This document shows positions 35,400-64,000 of a stretch of DNA of 64,000 nt, in pieces. The stretch covers positions 1,760,001-1,824,000 of the forward strand of contig CAXXDV010000003.1 in the NCBI GenBank assembly GCA_963674745.2. Reading direction: 5' to 3'. The first letter of the stretch is position 1. Every line of letters begins with the position of its first letter. The notes below the pieces were generated by a model that was given only the letters and a program-made list of their open reading frames with translations, did no database searches and was not told where the DNA came from. The position numbers and the translations under genes were made by a program. The DNA is from Desulfosudaceae bacterium. Lineage in GTDB: Bacteria > Desulfobacterota > Desulfobacteria > Desulfobacterales > Desulfosudaceae.

Positions 35400-37328
35400 T
35401 TATCGGTTCAAACTACGAAGATCGCCCTGCCTGACGGTAAATCCGATTTCATCCAGATATTCAAATACCAGCGTACCCTTTGTGCGGCCAAAGCCCAGAA
35501 TCTCTTTGCTTGCCGCCAGATGAATAGAATCGGTGGTTTTTGCCGCTTCTTTGACACGTTGTTTTATAACGGACAAAGACATTGGCAAAATATAATGATC
35601 GAAGCTGATGCGGACCAGTTCACCGTGACGGCAAAGATAATCAACAATCTGTAGCACTTCTTTTTTACTGATGCGGAGACGGGTGGTATGAAAGAAACTA
35701 CCGATTGAAAACGGCGAATCTCCATTTGCTTCAGCAAAAGCGATAATGCGCCGGCTCAAACGTTCCTGATCGGCGGTGAGATCGCCCTTGAATCCCGGTA
35801 TGGTAAAATCAGAACCATGCTGGTGGACGTTACCACTGTCCACAAGAACCGACAACAAAAAATTGAGCAATGTGTCACTCATTGACGGCTTAAGGTAAGC
35901 CTTTATTTCTTCTTTATTCAGCATAGGGACCAGAGGATGTCCGGCCAGTCTGTTTGTCATGGTTGTGATAATGTTTTCGATATATTTTTCATAGTTGTCT
36001 TTTAGAAAATAACTACCGTCATCCAGCCTGATAATTTTTCCGTTTTTCGTCATAGCCGTCATTTCTATCTGGATCGTAGAAACCGACAGGCCGGTGACGA
36101 CTGAAATTTCGTTTACATCGATTGACCGATCTGCATATCGTTGCAGACATGCCATGATCATTTCAACGGTCCGACCGTTTTTCATGGCGATCAGAAAGTC
36201 GACGGTTTCATCGACATTGTTTTCCTCTAACGAAGTCTCAGATAATTCCAGGATCATACCGCCCCCGATTACCGTCAGGTTGTCCGACAATGTAATGACG
36301 AATCGATCTCCCTTCGCGGCCATAATCGTTTCAACCAGCTCTAACTGCACAAAACCGCTTTCATTTAGGGTCAATGATTTTGTCCGTATCATTTTCAACA
36401 TAGAAATTGTTGCGGTTGTCCCGACATATATAACCACCTGCTGTTCATCGACGACAGGCGAAAAAACTGTCAGAGCAGCATTAATATATCGACTTGTCTT
36501 CCATACGCCCGGCGCGGCCAGGGCCATACCCCAGACGACACTATCAAGAGGAATTCGAGGCAGATTTATTCCGACCCGTTGACCGGCAACGGCTTTATCA
36601 ACCCGAACATGATGGACCTCCAGTGAACGGGCTTTAGTGGTTTTGTTTATCGGCAGCATTACAAACGGGTCGTCAACACAAACCCTGCCTGAAAGAATCG
36701 TACCGCAGACGACCGTACCCACGCCGGGCTTGGCCGTGGCTTTGTCGATCCACATTCGAAAAGGATGATCAATCGGTTTTGGTGGTATTGTTTTCAAGAC
36801 ATCAGACAGACAAGCCATCACATCATTTTTACCGGCATAAGATACGGCTGAAAAAGAAACCACCGGTAAATTCTGTAAAAACGAGCTTTTGATCGCTTCT
36901 CTGACTTCATCCTCAGCCAGACGACTCAACTCTTCATCTACCAGGTCGGTCCGAGATAAAACAATAAATCCATGCCGAATTCCGAACCATCGCATTAAAT
37001 TCAAAAAAGCTATTGTCTGGGGCATTACGCCGTCATCCGCGGCAACCACCAGAATAACCATATCCACCCCACAAAGCCCCCGGAAACTGTCAAGCAGATC
37101 CCGCTGACATACGGGAATTTCGATCAGCGCCGCGACATTGCCAATGTCTGTTTTTAATGGCGTAACATCGCAGCCGAAGGATAACTCGGGCAGTGATCTC
37201 TCTTGAGGCTGCGCAACGGCATCTGTCCCGGTCAGGCAACGGATCAGCATGGATTTGCCGTGGCCAGTGTGACCGGCAACACCGACCGTAACCGCGGGTG
37301 GTTCATGTCGAATATTTTCTGTCTTCAT
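35400..37328 (-). CDS. SelB-like elongation factor paralog with degenerate GTPase motifs
   Basis: VAADDGVMPQT, GVGTVVCGT, AGQRVGINL and C-terminal EYLDEIGFTVRQGDLR winged helix; G1 GHTGHGKS, G3 EIPVC, G4 SRTD. Start placed at MKTEN. Confidence 0.8.
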   Translation of the reverse strand: MKTENIRHEPPAVTVGVAGHTGHGKSMLIRCLTGTDAVAQPQERSLPELSFGCDVTPLKTDIGNVAALIEIPVCQRDLLDSFRGLCGVDMVILVVAADDGVMPQTIAFLNLMRWFGIRHGFIVLSRTDLVDEELSRLAEDEVREAIKSSFLQNLPVVSFSAVSYAGKNDVMACLSDVLKTIPPKPIDHPFRMWIDKATAKPGVGTVVCGTILSGRVCVDDPFVMLPINKTTKARSLEVHHVRVDKAVAGQRVGINLPRIPLDSVVWGMALAAPGVWKTSRYINAALTVFSPVVDEQQVVIYVGTTATISMLKMIRTKSLTLNESGFVQLELVETIMAAKGDRFVITLSDNLTVIGGGMILELSETSLEENNVDETVDFLIAMKNGRTVEMIMACLQRYADRSIDVNEISVVTGLSVSTIQIEMTAMTKNGKIIRLDDGSYFLKDNYEKYIENIITTMTNRLAGHPLVPMLNKEEIKAYLKPSMSDTLLNFLLSVLVDSGNVHQHGSDFTIPGFKGDLTADQERLSRRIIAFAEANGDSPFSIGSFFHTTRLRISKKEVLQIVDYLCRHGELVRISFDHYILPMSLSVIKQRVKEAAKTTDSIHLAASKEILGFGRTKGTLVFEYLDEIGFTVRQGDLRSLNR

Positions 37329-37553
37329 AGACCAATAACCCCAAACAATCGCTATTCGGACGAGCAGTCTGTGTTGCGATTCGTTATCCAGCCGAGTAAC
37401 CAAACGCATGGGCGACCGCCGGGCGCCCATGCAGAGCTAGCCACGATGGCGAGTTGTGGGACAGGCTGTTCAGCTTTTCGCTTAACGGATTAACTCCTGC
37501 GCCTTGCAAAAGGCGCCGGGGATTCAGGTTCGGATCCTGTGAGATATTTTGGA

Positions 37554-37862
37554 CTAATCCGCTCCACAATTACCGCAACAACTGCCGCATCCCCCGCCCA
37601 GTTCCAGATTGGAAGTGATTTTAAATCCCCATTCGTTAAAATCAACTTCGATTGGTTGGGCTTTTATCAGCAGGTTTTTGTCGATGACATAAGTAAACTC
37701 ACCCATTTTAAATGACTTGTCCTCAGCCTTTTGTACGTCTACGGCCATGGCGAACTGAGAACCGCTGCAACCCTGGTTTAAAAAAATCCGTATCGGTTGA
37801 ACCTCCTTGCCTTCAAAGTAACGGCCGATTTCCTCATTGGCGCTTTCAGTTACATTCAACAT
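37554..37862 (-). CDS. IscA/HesB-family protein, Cys form
   Basis: MLNVTESA...IRIFLNQGCSGSQFAMAVD and a C-terminal GGGCGSC; RBS AAGGGGAG. Confidence 0.85.
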   Translation of the reverse strand: MLNVTESANEEIGRYFEGKEVQPIRIFLNQGCSGSQFAMAVDVQKAEDKSFKMGEFTYVIDKNLLIKAQPIEVDFNEWGFKITSNLELGGGCGSCCGNCGAD

Positions 37863-37904
37863 ATCAATTCTCCCTTTAAACACTGATAATGATCCTGACT
37901 GTTC

Positions 37905-38273
37905 TCAATTGCTCCTCTCAACCAGATGCAGGTTCTGCTGTATAATCTTCCGGTGCAGCAGGTGATTTATCTGTTGGCATAGATCCATGCAGATAAACCT
38001 CAGATACCGAGCCTGGCAACCGCGGTTCGGATCGATATTTTCCAGAAAATAATGAAAAAAAATCGTGTCCGGTCCCATGGTCTCAAGCAATGCAGTCAGC
38101 CGTTCGGCCAGCGGATAATAATCATCGATATCGACCGGCTCCAAAATGATTTGATTAACAATCTTCCTGATTTCTGAAAACTCGATTGGATGATCACGGA
38201 TCGCTGACTCTGATTTACTGATGCTAGCCTGACAATTCTGTACTAATTTTTCCATCGGCTTAATTTGACTCAT
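37905..38273 (-). CDS. Hypothetical protein
   Basis: 122-aa ORF with RBS, tightly packed in the operon. Confidence 0.65.
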   Translation of the reverse strand: MSQIKPMEKLVQNCQASISKSESAIRDHPIEFSEIRKIVNQIILEPVDIDDYYPLAERLTALLETMGPDTIFFHYFLENIDPNRGCQARYLRFICMDLCQQINHLLHRKIIQQNLHLVERSN

Positions 38274-38292: not shown

Positions 38293-39603
38293 TTAATAAC
38301 CCGGCAGATTCACTTCGGCCAAATCCGGCCACAGGTATGTTCTTTCGTTTTCGCCCAGTATTCCCAGAGAGAGGGCGATAATCGTCCATAAATGAACGGC
38401 ACGGTAAGCCCCATCTCCGTGATGTTCACCCAGTTCTTCGATCTGGGCATGACAGTTGTGGCAGGGCGTAATGACATAGGGCGCGCCGGTAGCCATTACC
38501 TGGCGGTGTTTCAGCAACCCATAAGCCAACCGTTGCTCTTTATAACCGGATTGCAAAAATCCGCCCCCACCGCCACAACAGAAATTATTGGACTTGTTGG
38601 GCGTTACTTCGATAAAATTTTCTTCACCGACACAGGTCTTAATAACAAACCGCAAATCATCTGCCAGGGGATCACCAAAGCTTTTGCGGACCTGTTGACA
38701 GGGGTCCTGAACCGTAAATTTTACCTGTAGATCTTTGTTCCAATCGGCGTTAACCTTCAACCTGCCCTCACGGATCCAGCGGGCGTAATACGGCACAATA
38801 GGTTCAATTTCCAGGTCGGTTGGAATGTTATGGCGCTTCTGGCCCATCCACACCGAATATGTGGCGTGACCGCATTCGGTGTTCAAATATACTTTGCATC
38901 CGAGTTCACCGGCTCTATCCAGCGATTTTTGGGTTACGGTCTTCCAGCCCTCATCATCAGCCAGAAACATGCAATAATTTTCTCCGCCCCAACCGACACG
39001 ACTGTAAGTCCAGTCCGCTCCGGCCAGATGAAGAATTTTCCAGAGCGGAACCATTTCTTCCGGTTCCGTTACAGGTTCGCGTGAATTCTGAGTCAGAAAA
39101 AAATGGGCATTCTGCTTATCGATCGGCGCCTGCAGGTCCTCCCACTCGGACTGCGTATCTCGGACTTCATCCAGTATATCCTCAACGACAAACTGAAAAT
39201 CATCTTCCGGTGTTCCCATGGCACTGCAACTGTCGTTTTTCAAGGCCATATCACATGAACCGAGAATCCCCCTGGGTCGTTCTTCCCGTGGCCAGAGCTG
39301 CCTTGCTTCATAAACAATGGCGGCGATATCAATTTCCATCGGGCAGACATGAACACAACGTTTGCACATGGAACACATCCAAACCCATGGATGCTTAGAT
39401 ATGGCATCTTCCATGCCCAGGGAAACCATACGCACGAATTTTCTCGGGTCCATGTTTTCCAGACCGGTCGCCGGGCAGCCGGAGGCACAGGCGCCACATG
39501 TCAAACAAAGATTCATGTTGGCACCATTAGGAATCTTGTTCATAATTTTTTCTTTAAAAGGTGAACTGACTTGCTCACTAATTTTAACCGCTTCAGTTGT
39601 CAT
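38293..39603 (-). CDS. HdrD-like (Fe-S)-binding CCG-domain oxidoreductase
   Basis: CLTCGACASGCP, CSMCKRCVHVCP, QDPC, CCGGGGG, PCHNC. Confidence 0.88.
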   Translation of the reverse strand: MTTEAVKISEQVSSPFKEKIMNKIPNGANMNLCLTCGACASGCPATGLENMDPRKFVRMVSLGMEDAISKHPWVWMCSMCKRCVHVCPMEIDIAAIVYEARQLWPREERPRGILGSCDMALKNDSCSAMGTPEDDFQFVVEDILDEVRDTQSEWEDLQAPIDKQNAHFFLTQNSREPVTEPEEMVPLWKILHLAGADWTYSRVGWGGENYCMFLADDEGWKTVTQKSLDRAGELGCKVYLNTECGHATYSVWMGQKRHNIPTDLEIEPIVPYYARWIREGRLKVNADWNKDLQVKFTVQDPCQQVRKSFGDPLADDLRFVIKTCVGEENFIEVTPNKSNNFCCGGGGGFLQSGYKEQRLAYGLLKHRQVMATGAPYVITPCHNCHAQIEELGEHHGDGAYRAVHLWTIIALSLGILGENERTYLWPDLAEVNLPGY

Positions 39604-40726: not shown

Positions 40727-41728
40727 TCACTTATCCGTGGCAAAAAATTTTGACGACCCCTCCAATGTTTCACAGCCACATTCTTTAAAAAGAGCCTGAC
40801 AACTGGGGACGCTTTCTCCCCTTCCTTCTTCAGTTTTTTCCCGATTATCCCGGGGGTTAGCGCCGACTTCCGCCCAGAAAAGACTGGCCCCGGCCAAACC
40901 ACCGAGTGTACATGGTTCGTGGGTGCAATTACCCTTAACTGTTCGGGGCATTCCCAGTCGAGTGACTGCAACAATCTGGGCCATCCGCAATTCTGTAATC
41001 ATGCCCAGTTTTGCCATCTCCGTACCTGGAATGGAAATTCTCCGTGCCGCACCGCTGTAAGCCGGATTTAATGAAGCGGTCAACAGAATCATATCGGCCA
41101 GTTCTTCATTGGAATGTTCAGGACCGACCGGCTCCACACAAGTGCCCACCATTAAACCTGCTTCCTGAAAATTACGAATACTTGCAATCCTGGCCTCTGG
41201 ATTAAGGCCCGTGTCTTTTCCTTCTCTTAATCGCCTGGCGTGATATACCCCTGAATATCCGGCATCTTTAATCTTTCTGGCATTCTCCAGGGACTGATCA
41301 CCGATATTGGCGATCATCATGGTTGATGGGTCCAAGTTCTTTCTGATTTCCTGAGAAATCTCAATAAACGCCGAAAAAGAATAATTAGCCGTGATCATAA
41401 CATAAACCGCATTAGCGCCATCGGCTTCAAATTGTCTGGCATAAGCAATGGCATCGTCTATGCTGATAATCGTTTCATCTTGAAAAACACCGTTAATCGT
41501 TGCAAATGAACAAAATTTGCAATTGCAGGGACAGGGCGCAAGATTTAGGGCAAACTGGGCATGAACTTCCGCCTTGTTATCTGTCAGCTCCTTTGATATC
41601 CGGTTGGCTTCAGCCATGATTAGAAAAGACTCAACAGAATCCGATGGAAAACTAAGCATACGAACCAGTTCTTCGCGCGAAAAGCGTATGCCGTCCCCTG
41701 ATTTTTTTATCAGATCATCTATATGCAT
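40727..41728 (-). CDS. Radical SAM protein, biotin-synthase-like fold
   Basis: CPCNCKFCSF; CVEPVGPEH; GANPRD. Confidence 0.85.
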   Translation of the reverse strand: MHIDDLIKKSGDGIRFSREELVRMLSFPSDSVESFLIMAEANRISKELTDNKAEVHAQFALNLAPCPCNCKFCSFATINGVFQDETIISIDDAIAYARQFEADGANAVYVMITANYSFSAFIEISQEIRKNLDPSTMMIANIGDQSLENARKIKDAGYSGVYHARRLREGKDTGLNPEARIASIRNFQEAGLMVGTCVEPVGPEHSNEELADMILLTASLNPAYSGAARRISIPGTEMAKLGMITELRMAQIVAVTRLGMPRTVKGNCTHEPCTLGGLAGASLFWAEVGANPRDNREKTEEGRGESVPSCQALFKECGCETLEGSSKFFATDK

Positions 41729-54524: not shown

Positions 54525-55423
54525 GTCTCCCTCTCCTTTGTTTTGTTTAAAATGGTATTATGTTTATCCTCATTAAGAAAAGACGCGGCGCATTCGGAAA
54601 GGCACCGGATAATATCGATCACTTGTGAACCGGGATCAGGACGGGCCGTCTCTCCGGCCAGGCGGCTGATGGCAGAAGCATGGCAGCAGGCGATGGGAAT
54701 CTCATATCCCAGACCGGTCAGAGCCGCCACCAGCCCGGTCAGAATGTCCCCGGTTCCGCCGATGGCTTCCAGGACCGCCACCATAGGTTCGGATACGGCC
54801 TGAATGATTCCATCAGCATCCGCCAATACATCCTGTTCACCCTTGATTAACAGGTACCGGGCGGCGTTTTGGTATTGATAGGCCCTTGCAATCAACTCCG
54901 GAACACGATTTGATTCATGAAATATAAACCCCCGTGTATAAAATGGATGGGGCGCGGATTCATCGGCCAGAAAAGCCAGTTCACCGATATCCGGTGTAAA
55001 AATATCGTAAAAATCGGCATACCCGCTCATTTTGGCGGCATACATGAATCCGGCATCCGCAATGACGACCGGGCGGGGCGACATTTTCTCCATGGCCAGC
55101 ATGACCCGGTTATGCCAGTCGACGTCCGGTTGAATATAATGAAAGGTCAGGCTGCCAAACTTTTGGGACGGCAGATCGGCTTCCAGATGGCTATAAAGTT
55201 TCCGGCTGCCGGCACCGGTCCCGATGTCACCGACCAGGTACGCGAACGGGGGCGGCGCGTTGAAATAATCACAGATATTGACCGCAGCGGCCAGCAAGGC
55301 CGGTGTACCCCGGTTAACGGCAAGACGGTGGCCATTGATCTCAAGCATCCGACCGGACAAGGCGACCTGCCCGCAGGTTAAAGGGAACTGCTGATCCGGG
55401 ACTGTACCGACTACGGCGAACAT
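54518..55423 (-). CDS. Ribokinase-like/carbohydrate-kinase (NnrD-like) protein associated with yedE clusters
   Basis: IADAG, TPDIGEL, GGTGDILTG. Confidence 0.78.
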   Translation of the reverse strand: MFAVVGTVPDQQFPLTCGQVALSGRMLEINGHRLAVNRGTPALLAAAVNICDYFNAPPPFAYLVGDIGTGAGSRKLYSHLEADLPSQKFGSLTFHYIQPDVDWHNRVMLAMEKMSPRPVVIADAGFMYAAKMSGYADFYDIFTPDIGELAFLADESAPHPFYTRGFIFHESNRVPELIARAYQYQNAARYLLIKGEQDVLADADGIIQAVSEPMVAVLEAIGGTGDILTGLVAALTGLGYEIPIACCHASAISRLAGETARPDPGSQVIDIIRCLSECAASFLNEDKHNTILNKTKERETC

Positions 55424-55959
55424 TGGCGCTCCATTTCCTCATAAGCCAGTTGCAGCGCGTACCCGCACAAGGTATGCCCGATACTGCGGGGAGACGGCGC
55501 TTCATCCAGGCTTTTGCCGACCATCTCGGCGGCCAGATAAGGCACATCCGGACATCCGCCACCGGAAATATTGACCACGGTCCGGGTTTCTTTTTCCACT
55601 GTGATTTTCATATTCGCGGCCCGGACCATCAGAAACCGGCCATAATCGGTGGTAAAAAAAATATCGACCGGCTCCAGCAGCGGGCTGGAGACAGGCACGA
55701 TCTGAAGCGGAGCAATCTGGCCTGATTCCAGGACCCGCAGAATCTCGAGTTCCTCGATCAGGGGAAATTCAATCACCAGGTCACAACCGGTCCGGATTTC
55801 CGGCGGCGGGCCCATGACCCGTATTTTCCACCCGTTTTTGGCAAGCAGGTTTTCCGCCTGGATCACTTCGCTGGTGTTCTCAAATACCAGGATACCGCGA
55901 TCCTTCAAACCGGCAACACCGGCCGACGGCTTCTTTTTGAAAAAATCAAAAATCCCCAC
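55411..55959 (-). CDS. DUF3343 domain protein
   Basis: FENTSEVIQAE, PPEIRTGCD. Confidence 0.8.
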   Translation of the reverse strand: MGIFDFFKKKPSAGVAGLKDRGILVFENTSEVIQAENLLAKNGWKIRVMGPPPEIRTGCDLVIEFPLIEELEILRVLESGQIAPLQIVPVSSPLLEPVDIFFTTDYGRFLMVRAANMKITVEKETRTVVNISGGGCPDVPYLAAEMVGKSLDEAPSPRSIGHTLCGYALQLAYEEMERQCSP

Positions 55960-56259: not shown

Positions 56260-57339
56260 CTACTTCTGCTTAACAGTGAAACCGATGACCACACATACAA
56301 CCAGGCCGATCACTACCGCGGCCAACCCATGAGGACCGATGCCCTTTGGTGAACTGGCCAAACCGAAATTATGGGCAAAAGCGGCCCCGGCCACCATGCC
56401 GACGACAAAAATGCCGGCGTCCGTGTCCCCTTCCCCGGATAAAAACAACTGTCGGCCGGGACATCCACCGGCCAGGGCAAAGGCCAGGCCGGCCAGGACC
56501 ATGCCCAACGCATTCCAGACATGCTGGGTATGCGCCACCGGTTGGCCTTCGAACCCGGGTTTGAACTGCCCCAGGATCAAGTTGGTGACGAACGCGAAAA
56601 CAATCAGGGCCACAACACCTGAAAACAGATGAATCTGTTTGAACAGAATCAGATCGCGGAAAGCGCCCATGGTGCAGAACCGGCTCCGCTGGGCGAAAAA
56701 ACCGATCACCAGACCGACCAAAATAGAGATAATCAGGGGGGCGTGCATGGCGCCCGGACCTTTTGAGCTGTAAAACAATACCCCGCTCTGGGCTTCCCCT
56801 TCCGCCTGGGGATAAATCAGCATGAGCAGTAAAAACCCGATGGCCAGAACCGGCAGAATCAATCCCGCGGCCGGAGAGAATTTATGGGTCCGACCGAGGT
56901 TGTACCCGCTTTTTAAAAACCGGGTGCCGATCCAGACACCAATTACAAGGCCGAACAGACCGAGAATCGCGTTCCAGTCGCCACCGGCCAGACGCAGCAT
57001 GGCCCGCCAGGGGCACCCCAGAAAAACCAGGGCGCCGATCATGGCAAAAGCCCCAAGGATAAAACGAACCAGCGGGGAGGATCCGCCCCTTGGTCTGAAT
57101 TCTTTAAAAATAAGGGCTGCAACCAGGGAACCGATGACAAACCCGATAATCTCCGGCCGCATATACTGGACCACGCCGGCCCGATGCAAACCCAGGGCAC
57201 CGGTAATATCCCTGACAAAACAGGCCACGCAGATCCCCATATTCCCCGGGTTACCCCAGTACTGCAACAGCGCGGCGATGACGCCGATAAAAGCGCCTAC
57301 ACCGATGATCCCCCACCGTGTCGCAAAAACATTCTTCAT
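56260..57339 (-). CDS. yedE: YedE-family putative selenium transporter
   Basis: GNPGNMGICVACF, LGCPWR, QRSRFC, GGCPGRQ. Confidence 0.92.
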   Translation of the reverse strand: MKNVFATRWGIIGVGAFIGVIAALLQYWGNPGNMGICVACFVRDITGALGLHRAGVVQYMRPEIIGFVIGSLVAALIFKEFRPRGGSSPLVRFILGAFAMIGALVFLGCPWRAMLRLAGGDWNAILGLFGLVIGVWIGTRFLKSGYNLGRTHKFSPAAGLILPVLAIGFLLLMLIYPQAEGEAQSGVLFYSSKGPGAMHAPLIISILVGLVIGFFAQRSRFCTMGAFRDLILFKQIHLFSGVVALIVFAFVTNLILGQFKPGFEGQPVAHTQHVWNALGMVLAGLAFALAGGCPGRQLFLSGEGDTDAGIFVVGMVAGAAFAHNFGLASSPKGIGPHGLAAVVIGLVVCVVIGFTVKQK

Positions 57340-58995: not shown

Positions 58996-59367
58996 CTAGA
59001 TTACCCGGCAAGGGTAAAGGGCGATCTTGGGATCATCCGTCATGAGGGGATAGCTGTTCGCCATACTCTGTGCGATAAGCATTCGATCAAAAGGATCTTC
59101 ATGATGGAACGGCATGTCCTTGAGCAATAAGGCTGCTTCCGCGGAAAAATCAAGAAGCGCAAACCCGCTTTCACCGGCCATGGCCACCGGGTCAAAGTCC
59201 ATCGCAAGCTTTCCGACTGACGCTTTTATCATGAGTTCTGCAATGGTGACAGCGCTGACATATATCGTATTTGACAAATCTTCCAATATCGATCGTTTGG
59301 TATCGTCTATTCTGCCCGGATCGGATAATGCCCAGAGAAAAATATGAGTATCAATAATGATGTTCAT
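58996..59367 (-). CDS. vapC: VapC-family PIN toxin
   Basis: IDTHIFLW, HEDPFDRMLIAQ. Confidence 0.92.
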   Translation of the reverse strand: MNIIIDTHIFLWALSDPGRIDDTKRSILEDLSNTIYVSAVTIAELMIKASVGKLAMDFDPVAMAGESGFALLDFSAEAALLLKDMPFHHEDPFDRMLIAQSMANSYPLMTDDPKIALYPCRVI

Positions 59368-59600
59368 TGATCGTCACCATAAAACATGGCTGTGATATCA
59401 GCATCCTCATTCATTATATTATCCGGAGCCGTAAATTTTCCCGCCAGCAGACCGAGCTTTCTTTTGCCTTCAGGTTTGTGAATGACCAGATCCACAAGCG
59501 GCAGGTTGTTCTTGGCGATAACGACCTTCTCTCCACGGTAAACAAGCGCAACCAGTTTGGAAAGATTAGTTTTTGCTTCTGAAATATTAACGATCTTCAT
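59364..59600 (-). CDS. Phd/YefM-family antitoxin
   Basis: MKIVNISEAKTNLSKL; GAGG RBS; ATGA overlap with the toxin. Confidence 0.9.
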   Translation of the reverse strand: MKIVNISEAKTNLSKLVALVYRGEKVVIAKNNLPLVDLVIHKPEGKRKLGLLAGKFTAPDNIMNEDADITAMFYGDDQ

Positions 59601-59616
59601 GGCAACCTCACTGTTT

Positions 59617-59653
59617 TTGACCCGACAAGGCCAACTTGGTCTTGTCAGGTCAA
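59617..59653. promoter_or_regulatory. 37-bp palindrome, probable TA operator
   Basis: TTGACCCGACAAGGCCAA-C-TTGGTCTTGTCAGGTCAA (two mismatches), just upstream of the antitoxin. Confidence 0.6.
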
Positions 59654-59710
59654 GTATACCTAAAAAGGTCAACTCTGGTCAATAATATTCTGAGGTCATT
59701 TACAAAGTCA

Positions 59711-60499
59711 TTAAATCTCCAGGACCAGCCCCACCGGGCAATGATCCGAGCCGAAAACAGTATTGTCGATAAAGGCGTCCTTGAGCCAGCCTTTGGACAC
59801 GATATCTTCGGTTACAAAGAAATAATCGATACGCCACCCGACATTCCGGTCCCGGGCTTTGAAGCGATAGGTCCACCACGAATACTTGACAGTATCCGGA
59901 TACAGATGCCGGAACGTATCCACATAACCGTCGTCGATTATCCGGTCCAGCCAGTCCCGCTCGATCCGCATAAAGCCTGATGTTTTCTCATTAGCCTTGG
60001 GGTTTTTCAGATCGATCTCGTTGTGAGCGGTATTATAATCCCCGCAGATCACCAGGCTCCGCCCCTGCTTGCGGTATTCATCCGCATAAGCAAAAAAATC
60101 ACGATAAAAATCAAGCTTATATGTGAGCCGCTCGTCACTCATCTGACCGTTGGGAAAATAAATGTTAAAATAAATAAAATCGCCCAGATCCAGCTCAAGG
60201 ATACGCCCTTCATTATCGTATTCCGGCCGGCCGATGCCGGTTTTAACCTTTTGAGCCGCCATCCGGGAATATGCGGCCACCCCACTGTATCCTTTTTTTA
60301 CCGAGGCATAAGACCAGAAAGAGTCGTAGCCGTCAATGCTCGCCATTTCATCAGTGACCTGGGCTTCCTGCAGCTTGGTTTCCTGTATCCCGACCACATC
60401 GGCATCCAGGCTTTTAAAGGTCTCTAAAAACCCTTTTCCCATAACCGCCCTCAGACCGTTGACGTTCCAGGATACCAGTTTAATCTTTCGTTTGGCCAT
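59711..60499 (-). CDS. xth: Exodeoxyribonuclease III
   Basis: SWNVNGLRA, QETK, GDYN, GWRIDYF, SDHCP. Confidence 0.95.
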   Translation of the reverse strand: MAKRKIKLVSWNVNGLRAVMGKGFLETFKSLDADVVGIQETKLQEAQVTDEMASIDGYDSFWSYASVKKGYSGVAAYSRMAAQKVKTGIGRPEYDNEGRILELDLGDFIYFNIYFPNGQMSDERLTYKLDFYRDFFAYADEYRKQGRSLVICGDYNTAHNEIDLKNPKANEKTSGFMRIERDWLDRIIDDGYVDTFRHLYPDTVKYSWWTYRFKARDRNVGWRIDYFFVTEDIVSKGWLKDAFIDNTVFGSDHCPVGLVLEI

Positions 60500-60983
60500 T
60501 CGATCCCCTTGTTCGTCTATTGCAGGTTGGCTGTTCTTTTGACACCATTATCCATACCATGTAAAATGGTAAAAGTTCAAATTATCAATCGGATCGTTTT
60601 TTCTTGTATTCGGCTCTCAAACCACCACACTTAAAAATCCAACGGGCTCTTAACCCCCATCCGATTTTTCGGGCCACAAAGTACCGAACCTGCTCTTTCG
60701 AAACGATTGACTTTGAAAACAAACAATTACTGAACTCTTCCATAGTTCCGCCCTGAACCTGAAAACAAATTGATAAGTAAAACCAAAATTATCGAGAAGT
60801 TCCGACTAAGACACCCATATGGCACGAAAACAAGAATGGCAAAACTATTAAAATTTAGCCTTATTTAATATAAAATATTGATTTCTATTTATTTATCTGT
60901 ACAAATAGAGCTTAACATAATTCGCTTGTAATTAATAAAAGTTATAGCTAATTATATCCATGGGGGATGTAATCGAGAAATTC

Positions 60984-61004
60984 TATCTAATAACATTGTT
61001 ATAT
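60984..61004 (+). other. Putative attI site (first crossover G/TTATAT at 60998)
   Basis: TATCTAATAACATT-GTTATAT. GTTATATT is the complement of AATATAAC, which ends cassette 1, and no attC arm lies upstream. Confidence 0.55.
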
Positions 61005-61083
61005 TTATTAATCATCGAATAGATTTATGAGAAGATAAAATCGATTTAATTACCAAAAAAATAGAAAAATTTGATCTTAAAAA

Positions 61084-61284: not shown

Positions 61285-61408
61285 ATATAACAACGCCACC
61301 CACACGGACTCGCAGGGGCGGGCTTCTTTTGTCCTGGCATAGTTTGGTGTTGAACTCACTTTAGCGAAGTCTGCAACCCCTCCTCGCCGGTGGTGGCGGA
61401 CGTTGTGC
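61285..61408 (+). repeat. attC site 1 (type A)
   Basis: ATATAAC...GCCACCCAC / GTGGTGGC...GTTGTGC. Confidence 0.88.
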
Positions 61409-61857: not shown

Positions 61858-61984
61858 GCACAACAAGGCCGCGCAAAGGAGAGCCAGGGCATTCGGTTTT
61901 GAAAAGTCGGGGGAGAACGAACATTAACCATCTTTAAGGCAAGTCAGTGGAAGCCCTGGCTCCCATTGGCGGCCGACGTTATAT
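61858..61984 (+). repeat. attC site 2 (type B)
   Basis: GCACAAC...GGCCGCGCAA / TTGGCGGCC...GTTATAT. Confidence 0.88.
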
Positions 61985-62396
61985 GCAAAATGGAATGAAC
62001 AAAAATACACAAATTTATTACAGCTTTTATAGCCTTTTTCTTGGTATATTTATTTCATCTGGAATTCTATTTTGGACAAATAAATTAAATTGGTTGTTCA
62101 TCGTATTTTTGGGCTTTTTTTGTTTTATCCTTACTTACTTTTTTTTGAACAAACTATCCATTGTGATAATTAGTAGCTTTTTATTAGCGTTTTTCTGGGC
62201 AATTACTGCACCAGGCTGGATCGATTCAAATGATCCCAACAGTTATGAGCGCGTTAATCTATTAGGGTATTTTGCTGGTTTTTGCTTTTTGATTTTTATT
62301 GTGAGTGTTGTCCTGTCACTGACGAAACGTATAGTATCTCGATATAGCATTTCAGAAAATATTGATGAAAAAAACAATAATTCAGGGAGCATATAA
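61983..62396 (+). CDS. Cassette 3: membrane hypothetical protein
   Basis: Stop TAA lies within the ATATAAC inverse core, as is typical of cassettes. Confidence 0.7.
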   Translation: MQNGMNKNTQIYYSFYSLFLGIFISSGILFWTNKLNWLFIVFLGFFCFILTYFFLNKLSIVIISSFLLAFFWAITAPGWIDSNDPNSYERVNLLGYFAGFCFLIFIVSVVLSLTKRIVSRYSISENIDEKNNNSGSI

Positions 62397-62518
62397 CAAG
62401 GCCGCGCAAAGGATCGCCAGGGCACTCGGCTTTTGAACATTCGGGGGAAATCGAAAATAAAACATCTTTAAGGCAAGTCAGTGGAAGCCCTGGCTCCCAT
62501 TGGCGGCCGCCGTTGTGT
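62391..62518 (+). repeat. attC site 3 (type B)
   Basis: ATATAAC...GTTGTGT; close copy of site 2. Confidence 0.88.
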
Positions 62519-63037: not shown

Positions 63038-63161
63038 ACACAACAACGCCACTCACACAGACTCGCAGGGGCGCCCTGCCTTAGTTTTTGCATGGTGTGG
63101 CGTTGAACTAACATTTAAGGAGTCCGCAACCCCTGCTCGCCGGTGGTGGCGGACGTTATGC
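63038..63161 (+). repeat. attC site 4 (type A)
   Basis: ACACAAC...GTTATGC; close copy of site 1. Confidence 0.88.
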
Positions 63162-63204
63162 CTATAAAATGTTTTAGAAAATTACACAAAGTGATTGGGG
63201 GAAT

Positions 63205-63516
63205 ATGAAAATACTATTTATAATTTCCACTGACGATGCAGAAACATCATATAATGCTATGCGCTTAGCAAATGTCGCTGTGAACAAGGGTGATGAGGTT
63301 AGCGTTTTCATGCTTGGCAAAGGCGTTCTTTTTGAGAAAACCAGCAACGATCAATTTAATGTCATTGAACAGGTCAACCAATTCGAAGGGGATTTTTATG
63401 TCTGAGGGGTGTGCATGAAATCCCACGGTCTGGAGGGATCAAGCTCATGTCCCATCGCTTGGATGGATGACCTTTATGAATTGTCAATGGAAGCTGAGAA
63501 GGTTTTAACTTTTTAA
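63205..63516 (+). CDS. Cassette 5: DsrE-family protein, probable selenoprotein (UGA 63403-63405, UxxC)
   Basis: Read-through gives ...GDFYV-U-GVCMKSHGLEGSSSCPIAWMDDLYELSMEAEKVLTF, a complete 103-aa DsrE-like protein, with a SECIS-like hairpin after the UGA. Confidence 0.85.
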
Positions 63517-63530
63517 ATAACAGAATAATG

Positions 63531-63658
63531 GCATAACCATCAAGCTCAAGTGGACAGCAAGGGCACTCGGGTTTTGAAAAATCTGGTGAAATTGAACAAC
63601 CATAATCTTTAACCAAGTTGGTGGAAGCCCTTGCTGCCATTGGCTTGAGACGTTGTGT
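63531..63658 (+). repeat. attC site 5 (diverged type B)
   Basis: GCATAAC...TCAAGCTCAA / TTGGCTTGA...GTTGTGT. Confidence 0.85.
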
Positions 63659-63677: not shown

Positions 63678-64000
63678 ATGCAAATCATTTATGACAAAGT
63701 GTCCACCGATTATATATATCCATTGGGCGCTCGATCGGACATAGATGAATTAAAGGGCAAAATTGACGATCACCTTTTAAATAAAATTTCAAAAATTCGA
63801 TTTGGCTGTAATTTAAAAACAACCCAGGAAGCCCGTCTTGTTCAACGAGGCGAAAAATTTGAAATTAGGATTAATTTTTGCCTCAAAGAATACAGATCCC
63901 CGATAATCACAGACAAAAAGGATTGGCTGCAGACCATTGAAAAGTTTGGCGGAAAACCTGATCCCAAAAGAAATACTGTACAGTGGAGCTTAGAAAGTGC
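63678..64000 (+). CDS. Cassette 6: hypothetical protein, truncated by the window end
   Basis: Manual translation MQIIYDKVSTDYIYPLG..., open to 64000. Confidence 0.6.
   Translation, partial: MQIIYDKVSTDYIYPLGARSDIDELKGKIDDHLLNKISKIRFGCNLKTTQEARLVQRGEKFEIRINFCLKEYRSPIITDKKDWLQTIEKFGGKPDPKRNTVQWSLES

Follow-up and report, generated by a model that had tools for sequence, protein, structure and literature searches.

Selenoproteins of the DsrE-like family that carry a UxxC motif were described in 2005 by Zhang, Fomenko and Gladyshev, whose passages on the subject also give a small apical loop with a guanosine as a common feature of bacterial SECIS elements (PMC1088965), and DsrE-like selenoproteins are listed in the corresponding passages of a 2026 review (PMC13188914). 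The DsrE-like domain at the C-terminus of YedF carries a CGXC motif, and the passages that describe it place the protein in selenium metabolism (PMC5322559). Escherichia coli YchN is listed by its depositors only as a hypothetical protein (PDB 1jx7).

Here we describe a locus in a 64,000-nt stretch of DNA from a Desulfosudaceae bacterium (hereafter the window), which was analysed as a follow-up of a prediction made from the sequence alone. Positions 63205–63516 (+ strand) probably encode a 103-residue selenoprotein of the DsrE/YchN fold, with a UGA codon recoded by means of a hairpin inside the ORF, as the sole ORF of a unit bounded by attC sites. Considered separately, the selenoprotein reading is very likely right, and the cassette reading is likely right. 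In the proposed mechanism, UGA codon 67 would be read as selenocysteine, directed by the hairpin within the ORF; the hairpin would be bound by the SelB that the window also encodes; and the selenocysteine would lie at the end of a strand and the start of a helix, with U-G-V-C corresponding to the C-G-x-C of Cys-containing relatives. The array, low in GC and co-oriented, would comprise at least six units, each having one ORF bounded by attC-type sites, with the DsrE unit as the fifth, and the full protein would be made from the cassette only in a host with selA, selB, selC, and selD.

A DsrE-family reading frame containing an in-frame UGA

Under translation table 11, the ORF at 63205–63405 encodes 66 aa and terminates at TGA 63403–63405. 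With this TGA read as a residue, the frame continues as GVCMKSHGLEGSSSCPIAWMDDLYELSMEAEKVLTF, 36 codons leading to TAA 63514–63516, with a gap of 14 nt between the TAA and the GCATAAC box (63531–63537) of a downstream attC-like site; the frame is therefore open beyond the TGA and ends 14 nt before the site, as originally predicted. The resulting gene comprises 103 codons plus TAA, with codon 67 as the putative Sec codon of a U-G-V-C motif. The read-through product matches the Pfam DsrE profile (PF02635) with an E-value of 1.6e-11 and 44.8 bits (cut-off 22.7) over profile positions 1–116 of 116, and the 66-residue piece matches profile positions 1–63 only. None of the NCBIfam models matches the read-through protein, and a tblastn search for a second DsrE-like gene returned the gene itself as the sole match.

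An AlphaFold2 model of the protein, computed with a 74-row alignment, has a pLDDT of 95.5 and a pTM of 0.88, and places residue 67 at the end of a strand (63–67) and immediately before a helix that starts at residue 68 (68–73). A Foldseek search of the PDB with this model identified the Sulfolobus DsrE/DsrF-like protein (3mc3, TM 0.84), YchN (1jx7, TM 0.83), DsrE of DsrEFH (2hy5_A, TM 0.83), and TusD (2d1p_E, TM 0.76). In a profile search of PDB sequences, YchN was the best match among solved structures (E 2.8e-8), with its C-K-T-C placed under the C-G-T-C column. By analogy with its family, the protein most likely has a selenol/thiol redox role or serves as a carrier of sulfane sulfur or selenium.

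To place codon 67 in a family context, we scanned one genome per species and kept the best 80 of 222 loci. The loci were recovered with a search pattern consisting of the upstream peptide, and a second pattern admitted only Trp or Cys codons at the site; because the productive pattern was the upstream peptide, the search is unbiased towards TGA. Codon 67 is TGA in 79 of these best 80 loci and TGG in 1 and, with the window included, TGA in 80 of 81 genes. The 81 genes are each distinct in nucleotide sequence, and every one is 312 nt long. The 36 codons 3′ of the TGA are open to the same stop position in 81 of 81 genes, and residues invariant in this part are encoded by variable codons: L90 uses at least four codons, and D88 is GAT in 64 genes and GAC in 17. 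Residues thus remain constant while codons vary, indicating protein-level selection on the part downstream of the UGA.

These data bear on the simplest alternative, which is that the TGA is a true stop, that the gene is a truncated remnant or encodes a 66-residue product, and that the downstream frame is open by chance. Standard gene calling does yield 66 aa, and among the best 120 database clusters, 95 end directly before the UGA position, of which 83 are exactly 66 aa, as anticipated in the original prediction, which held that standard pipelines would truncate the gene. We nevertheless regard a true stop as very improbable, since the downstream codons are open and conserved as protein in all 81 genes, with synonymous variation, since the end of the Pfam profile is reached only with read-through, and since full-length homologues with Cys exist.

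Those homologues were obtained by searching 1.84 billion cluster representatives, which returned 397 matches at E ≤0.001, and by aligning the 73 sequences with full-length coverage, at 28–50% identity. Position 67 is Cys in 71 of the 73, Ser in 1, and Trp in 1, and position 70 is Cys in 72 of the 73. The original prediction had stated that DsrE-like proteins have a CxxC at this position and had proposed an alignment of Cys with the UGA as a check, and both are borne out by these counts. Judged from the alignment, the CGxC of the distant homologues and the UGVC of the window would constitute a classic Sec/Cys pair. One distant homologue of 133 aa (P0264) has a W aligned with the Sec/Cys position, and may represent a further Sec-containing branch in which TGA was translated as Trp.

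A second alternative is that UGA encodes tryptophan, or another standard residue, through a changed code or general read-through. In particular, among the 23 read-through entries of the best 120 database clusters, 20 have W at the site, 2 have C, and 1 has S, and one related locus (L056) has TGG. Trp in homologues, which the original prediction had named as evidence against itself, is thus found superficially, in 20 of 23 read-through entries, but not in the DNA, where TGG occurs in 1 of 80 loci. Three of the W entries (P0005, P0007, and P0024) run beyond the normal C-terminus and show W at the terminal stop position as well, and the genome loci that match them (L031, L035, and L036) have TGA at that stop; these entries have therefore been translated with TGA as Trp. 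From the sequences compared, Trp in the database homologues would in general appear to be TGA translated as Trp. Further arguments against a Trp codon are that TGA is the terminal stop in 42 of the 81 genes, that Cys, and not Trp, occupies the position in 71 of the 73 distant homologues, that codon 39 of the TGG locus, which lies on a contig labelled with a coverage of 3, is an in-frame TAG, and that a reassigned codon would need no conserved hairpin. Overall, we consider UGA as tryptophan the least probable of the readings weighed here, and extremely so. Because TGA terminates 42 of 81 of these genes, it is still a stop codon in these organisms, and the recoding is local. Selenocysteine remains our reading of codon 67.

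Two of the loci call for separate remarks. For the sole TGG locus (L056, 540–848), either decay of the copy or an assembly error at low coverage may be the explanation. The gene of one locus in a bin labelled Saccharibacteria (L031) is nearly identical to that of a locus in a Desulfobacterales bin (L035), with matching flanks, and this near-identity is probably a binning error.

Most database entries of the DsrE-like selenoprotein are consequently cut at the UGA (95 of the best 120 clusters), and others are mistranslated with Trp. Users of such entries work with the wrong protein, from which the active site has been lost.

A SECIS-like hairpin and the selenium genes of the window

A SECIS-like hairpin lies inside the ORF at 63413–63444 (+ strand), as identified by a consensus fold, by pair counts, and by a synonymous diversity of about zero at codons 72–78. 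The hairpin begins 7 nt after the UGA, and its apical loop begins 21 nt after the UGA, within the reading frame. The upper stem and loop span 63421–63438 (+ strand), with the apical loop, GGTCTG, at 63427–63432. The loop includes GG, and it appears similar to the loop of GGUC type in the fdhF element of E. coli.

Codons 72–78, which encode K S H G L E G, are near-frozen across the 81 genes: AAA in 81/81, TCC in 77/77, CAC in 81/81, GGT in 80/80, CTG in 73/81, GAG in 67/67, and GGA in 79/81. Synonymous diversity at the remaining degenerate codons is 0.45–2.5 bits, mostly at least 0.7. In the consensus fold, columns 18–22 and 24 pair with columns 31 and 33–37. Over 75 distinct homologous sequences, 99.7% of cells are paired in the inner stem, formed by ATCCC (63420–63424) and GGGAT (63435–63439), and the lower helix (columns 11-42, 12-41, 14-39, 15-38, and 16-37) is kept in at least 72 of the 75 rows. 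A compensatory change from U-A to G-C occurs in two of the 75 rows, and third-position changes at 11-42, 12-41, and 14-39 preserve wobble pairs. Covariation in the SECIS is thin because its core is invariant, and our assignment of the hairpin over codons 72–78 as a putative bacterial SECIS is argued chiefly from the frozen synonymous sites.

The original prediction had named both the inner ATCCC/GGGAT hairpin and an outer CATGA/TCATG stem. The inner hairpin is present and conserved, as given above. The outer stem is present in the window, but it is paired in only 68% of cells, and, of its five pairs, two are not formed in 49 and 45 of the 75 rows. We rejected this register, since the alternative register, the lower helix described above, is the one that is kept. 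A search against Rfam at gathering thresholds returned no family in the window, the SECIS hairpin included.

Because a bacterial SECIS lies inside the ORF, a cassette carrying this gene would bring with it all gene-specific needs for Sec insertion. Other components of selenium metabolism are encoded in the window. A gene for SelB, the selenocysteine-specific elongation factor, lies at 35400–37430 (- strand): the Pfam Beta-barrel_SelB and SelB-wing_3 models match above their cut-offs, and TIGR00475 matches with E 6e-71 and 239.9 bits, 2 bits below its cut-off of 242.25. A putative selenium transporter of the YedE family is encoded at 56260–57339 (- strand; TIGR04112, E 9e-151, 501.7 bits versus a cut-off of 200) and adjoins a gene for a putative Se/S carrier-like protein at 55411–55959 (- strand; PF11823, E 2.5e-24), such that the selenium island that had been predicted about 6 kb away is real. 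Within the 64-kb window there is no selA, selD, or tRNA-Sec, and ARAGORN detects 0 tRNAs. Together, the conserved TGA, the Cys homologues, the SECIS-like hairpin, the coding conservation after the TGA, and the presence of SelB and YedE in the window uphold the original identification of a selenoprotein.

Several further genes lie in this part of the window. Next to SelB are two small ORFs without an assigned family (37554–37883 and 37905–38273) and a gene for an HdrD-like Fer4/CCG protein (38293–39603). Between 41842 and 45700, the window encodes two rhodanese proteins, one of 942 residues with six domains and one of 286 residues with two. A radical SAM gene at 40727–41728, near the rhodanese proteins, has the same Pfam match coordinates as a radical SAM gene located immediately 3′ of the DsrE-Sec gene in one related locus (L064).

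The attC-like array and its counterparts in other genomes

The gene lies in a candidate cassette of 497 bp at 63156–63652 (+ strand), which begins between the G and the TT in the GTT of the attC upstream and ends with the G of the GTT in the attC that is its own. Five attC-like sites, all on the + strand, were recognised by alignment, folding, and a covariance model of their own: site a at 61285–61408, site b at 61858–61984, site c at 62391–62518, site d at 63038–63161, and site e at 63531–63658. Site d (103 bits) is part of the upstream cassette, and the left boundary of the DsrE cassette is formed by the GTTATGC box of this site. Site e (135 bits) is the DsrE cassette's own, with GCATAAC at 63531–63537 and GTTGTGT at 63652–63658. 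The sites are 124–128 nt long, share 75% mean column identity, start with a heptamer ending in AAC (xxxxAAC), end with GTTxxxx, and are each located directly 3′ of an ORF on the same strand, with GTT-to-GTT spacings of 576, 534, 643, and 497 bp. Their bottom strands form long imperfect hairpins with single-base bulges (z -3.46 for site e). Compared with shuffles, the hairpins of three of the five sites are clearly better (z -3.5, -2.1, and -4.3), and two are weaker (-1.5 and -0.5). GC content is 0.35–0.42 in the array, versus 0.46–0.58 to the left of 60.5 kb, and none of the neighbouring cassette ORFs matches a Pfam family above cut-off. The gene is thus flanked by attC-like sites within an array of five, consistent with the cassette of the original prediction.

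The term integron, by contrast, is not supported. Scanning 54 window ORFs for integron integrase and tyrosine recombinase families gave no match; the side on which intI would be expected carries xthA (59711–60499) and a PIN/Phd pair, and the array continues off the window end at 64000. In view of the missing integrase match and of xthA on the expected side, we describe an array without a visible integrase and do not call it an integron. It is a CALIN-like array, not a demonstrated integron; CALIN is the term of the IntegronFinder literature for attC clusters without an integrase. The PIN-domain toxin and Phd/YefM antitoxin genes (58996–59672, - strand) are separated by about 1.6 kb from the first attC-like site to their right. 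The 580 bp of AT-rich DNA that separate xthA from the first cassette ORF (60500–61080, GC 0.35) contain no ORF longer than 52 aa and no attC-like site.

Expression of the gene in this setting is uncertain, since the cassette contains no promoter-like site and since a terminator-like hairpin (63065–63079, within site d) lies just upstream of the gene. The two attC-like sites of what we call type A each have, on the coding strand, a GC-rich hairpin (61309–61322 and 63065–63079) with a T-run after it, and these hairpins might stop transcription between cassettes. At the left edge of the array, a near-consensus sigma-70-like site directed into the array (60539–60567; TTGACA, 17 nt, TAAAAT; 11/12) was observed; the total of sigma-70-like sites in the region shows no excess over shuffles.

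The main alternative to a cassette is that the repeats belong to another intergenic palindromic family and are not attC sites, in which case the selenoprotein gene would be an ordinary chromosomal gene located in a low-GC island rich in repeats. This explanation, which we consider unlikely, gains from the integrase search, which was negative for the window ORFs and also for 60 large ORFs in the 16 related loci with cassette marks, and from the fact that the attC assignment was made by inspection, by folding, and by a model built from the same five sites. These five sites score 103–137 bits with that covariance model, which is their own; beyond them it found a reverse-strand echo and, over the 80 loci, nothing comparable except a weak match in one locus (L006, E 0.02), and it is too specific for surveying other genomes. 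A home-made attC scan, which combined AAC...GTT ends with constrained DNA folding, was discarded as non-discriminating: over 77 loci, the plus strand gave 70 matches, the minus strand 63, and reversed sequence 83, the controls scoring as many matches as the real sequence. A position-restricted version was weak: 4 of 240 control positions attained a score that was equalled or exceeded in 4 of 80 loci and in the window. In addition, about 66 of the 80 related loci have no boundary motif.

Against another repeat family stands the architecture of the array, with one co-oriented site per ORF, AAC and GTT ends, and a bulged hairpin of 124–128 nt, as do the boundaries of the gene in other genomes. 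Specifically, within the first 40 nt 3′ of the stop, the motif YATAAC is present in 9 of 80 loci (in 8 of them at 16–17 nt), versus 1.2% of random positions (P 7e-7), and the motif GTTAT[GTA] is present in 12 of the 80 at 25–80 nt 5′ of the ATG, versus 3.1% of controls (P 7e-6). In most of the 80 loci, blastn comparisons with the window show homology limited to the ORF. The last homologous position is 63537, which closes the AAC box, in L003, L016, and L021, and 63539 in L033; in L018, homology begins at 63155, the G of the GTT box. Breaks such as those at the GTT box for L018 and at the AAC box for L003, L016, and L021 are as expected for cassettes. Clear attC-like hairpins are present beside the gene in five loci of unrelated contexts (L013, L014, L016, L018, and L028), those of L003 and L008 are truncated or decayed, and the upstream site of L013 looks terminator-like. 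Hairpins upstream of the gene in L039 and L068, which had been flagged by the heuristic, were dropped, as they look like generic GC-rich hairpins.

Across the 16 loci with cassette marks, the neighbouring genes are unrelated. The attC-like sequences differ among genomes, and no excision or insertion event was observed. In a quick nucleotide tree, two groups with 42 rows together include 14 marked genes, and a further clade of 39 rows (starred in the tree) includes none, a distribution that fits a mobilised sub-lineage. The two loci of the starred clade that were examined (L064 and L075) share a context of an ArsR-type regulator and pieces of a pyridine-nucleotide oxidoreductase, and L064 also has a radical SAM gene. 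The gene seems, in short, to be packaged as a cassette here and in a few relatives.

Two observations in the related loci may merit attention in their own right. Upstream of the DsrE-Sec gene in L064 (4013–4784) and L075 (4133–4730), the pyridine-nucleotide-disulfide oxidoreductase is present as pieces of 161–166 aa, each covering half of the profile, which may be another interrupted or recoded gene. In L003 (about 4720 onward), only about 25 nt remain of the attC-like site that follows the DsrE-Sec gene, and the next ORF may begin like a REP-associated/IS200-type transposase.

Comparison with described systems

The published DsrE-like selenoproteins and the window protein have in common the PF02635 domain, the UxxC motif, and an in-ORF hairpin with a G in the apical loop, as far as the passages on the family describe it (PMC1088965). 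From family and motif only, matched to those passages, we infer that the window protein belongs to the published DsrE-like UxxC subfamily. The passages on these selenoproteins in both sources mention no cassette or integron context (PMC1088965, PMC13188914).

E. coli YchN (1jx7) is similar in size and is the closest match in fold and profile, but it has Cys, not Sec, and is about 20% identical. DsrE of DsrEFH and TusD of TusBCD share the fold (2hy5_A, 0.83; 2d1p_E, 0.76), but the TusD/DsrE model TIGR03012 does not match the window protein, and the cassette has no DsrF/H or TusB/C partner genes. The CGXC of YedF, as given in the passages on that protein (PMC5322559), resembles the UGVC of the window protein, and a YedE gene lies 6 kb from the window selenoprotein gene. 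The YedF model TIGR03527 matches the Cys homologues weakly (E 3e-5 to 2e-3, about 20 bits versus a cut-off of 110) and does not match the window protein, which is without the SirA-like N-terminal domain.

As to its context, the array resembles integron cassettes and CALIN in having short ORFs, each with an imperfect palindrome running from AAC to GTT, in the common orientation and low GC of its units, and in neighbours without an assigned family. It differs from them in that no intI or attI is seen here and in that its sites were judged attC-like by inspection. Chromosomal integron arrays have closely alike sites, as do the five sites of the window.

A bacterial selenoprotein gene fits the one-ORF format of a cassette, because the recoding signal lies within the ORF. 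We put forward, tentatively and at somewhat less than even confidence, that the DsrE-like selenoprotein gene is a recurrently mobilised, self-contained recoded cassette of sulfate-reducer-type bacteria, borne by attC sites and useful only in Sec-competent hosts. If recurrent mobilisation is true, genes of this kind are systematically mis-called as fragments of 66 residues in cassette metagenomes and in integron surveys, and a hidden class of recoded genes would be present in the cassette pool. It also raises the question of the Sec machinery of the host as a limit on the spread of a mobile gene.

A full-text literature search, with most subscription journals outside its coverage, returned no report of a cassette-borne selenoprotein. 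The nearest item in the literature, according to the passages concerned, is a Vibrio cassette for a selenocysteine lyase, an enzyme that is not itself a selenoprotein (PMC1382264). Relative to these described systems, the family of the window protein is already known, and its cassette context is a modest and possibly new observation.
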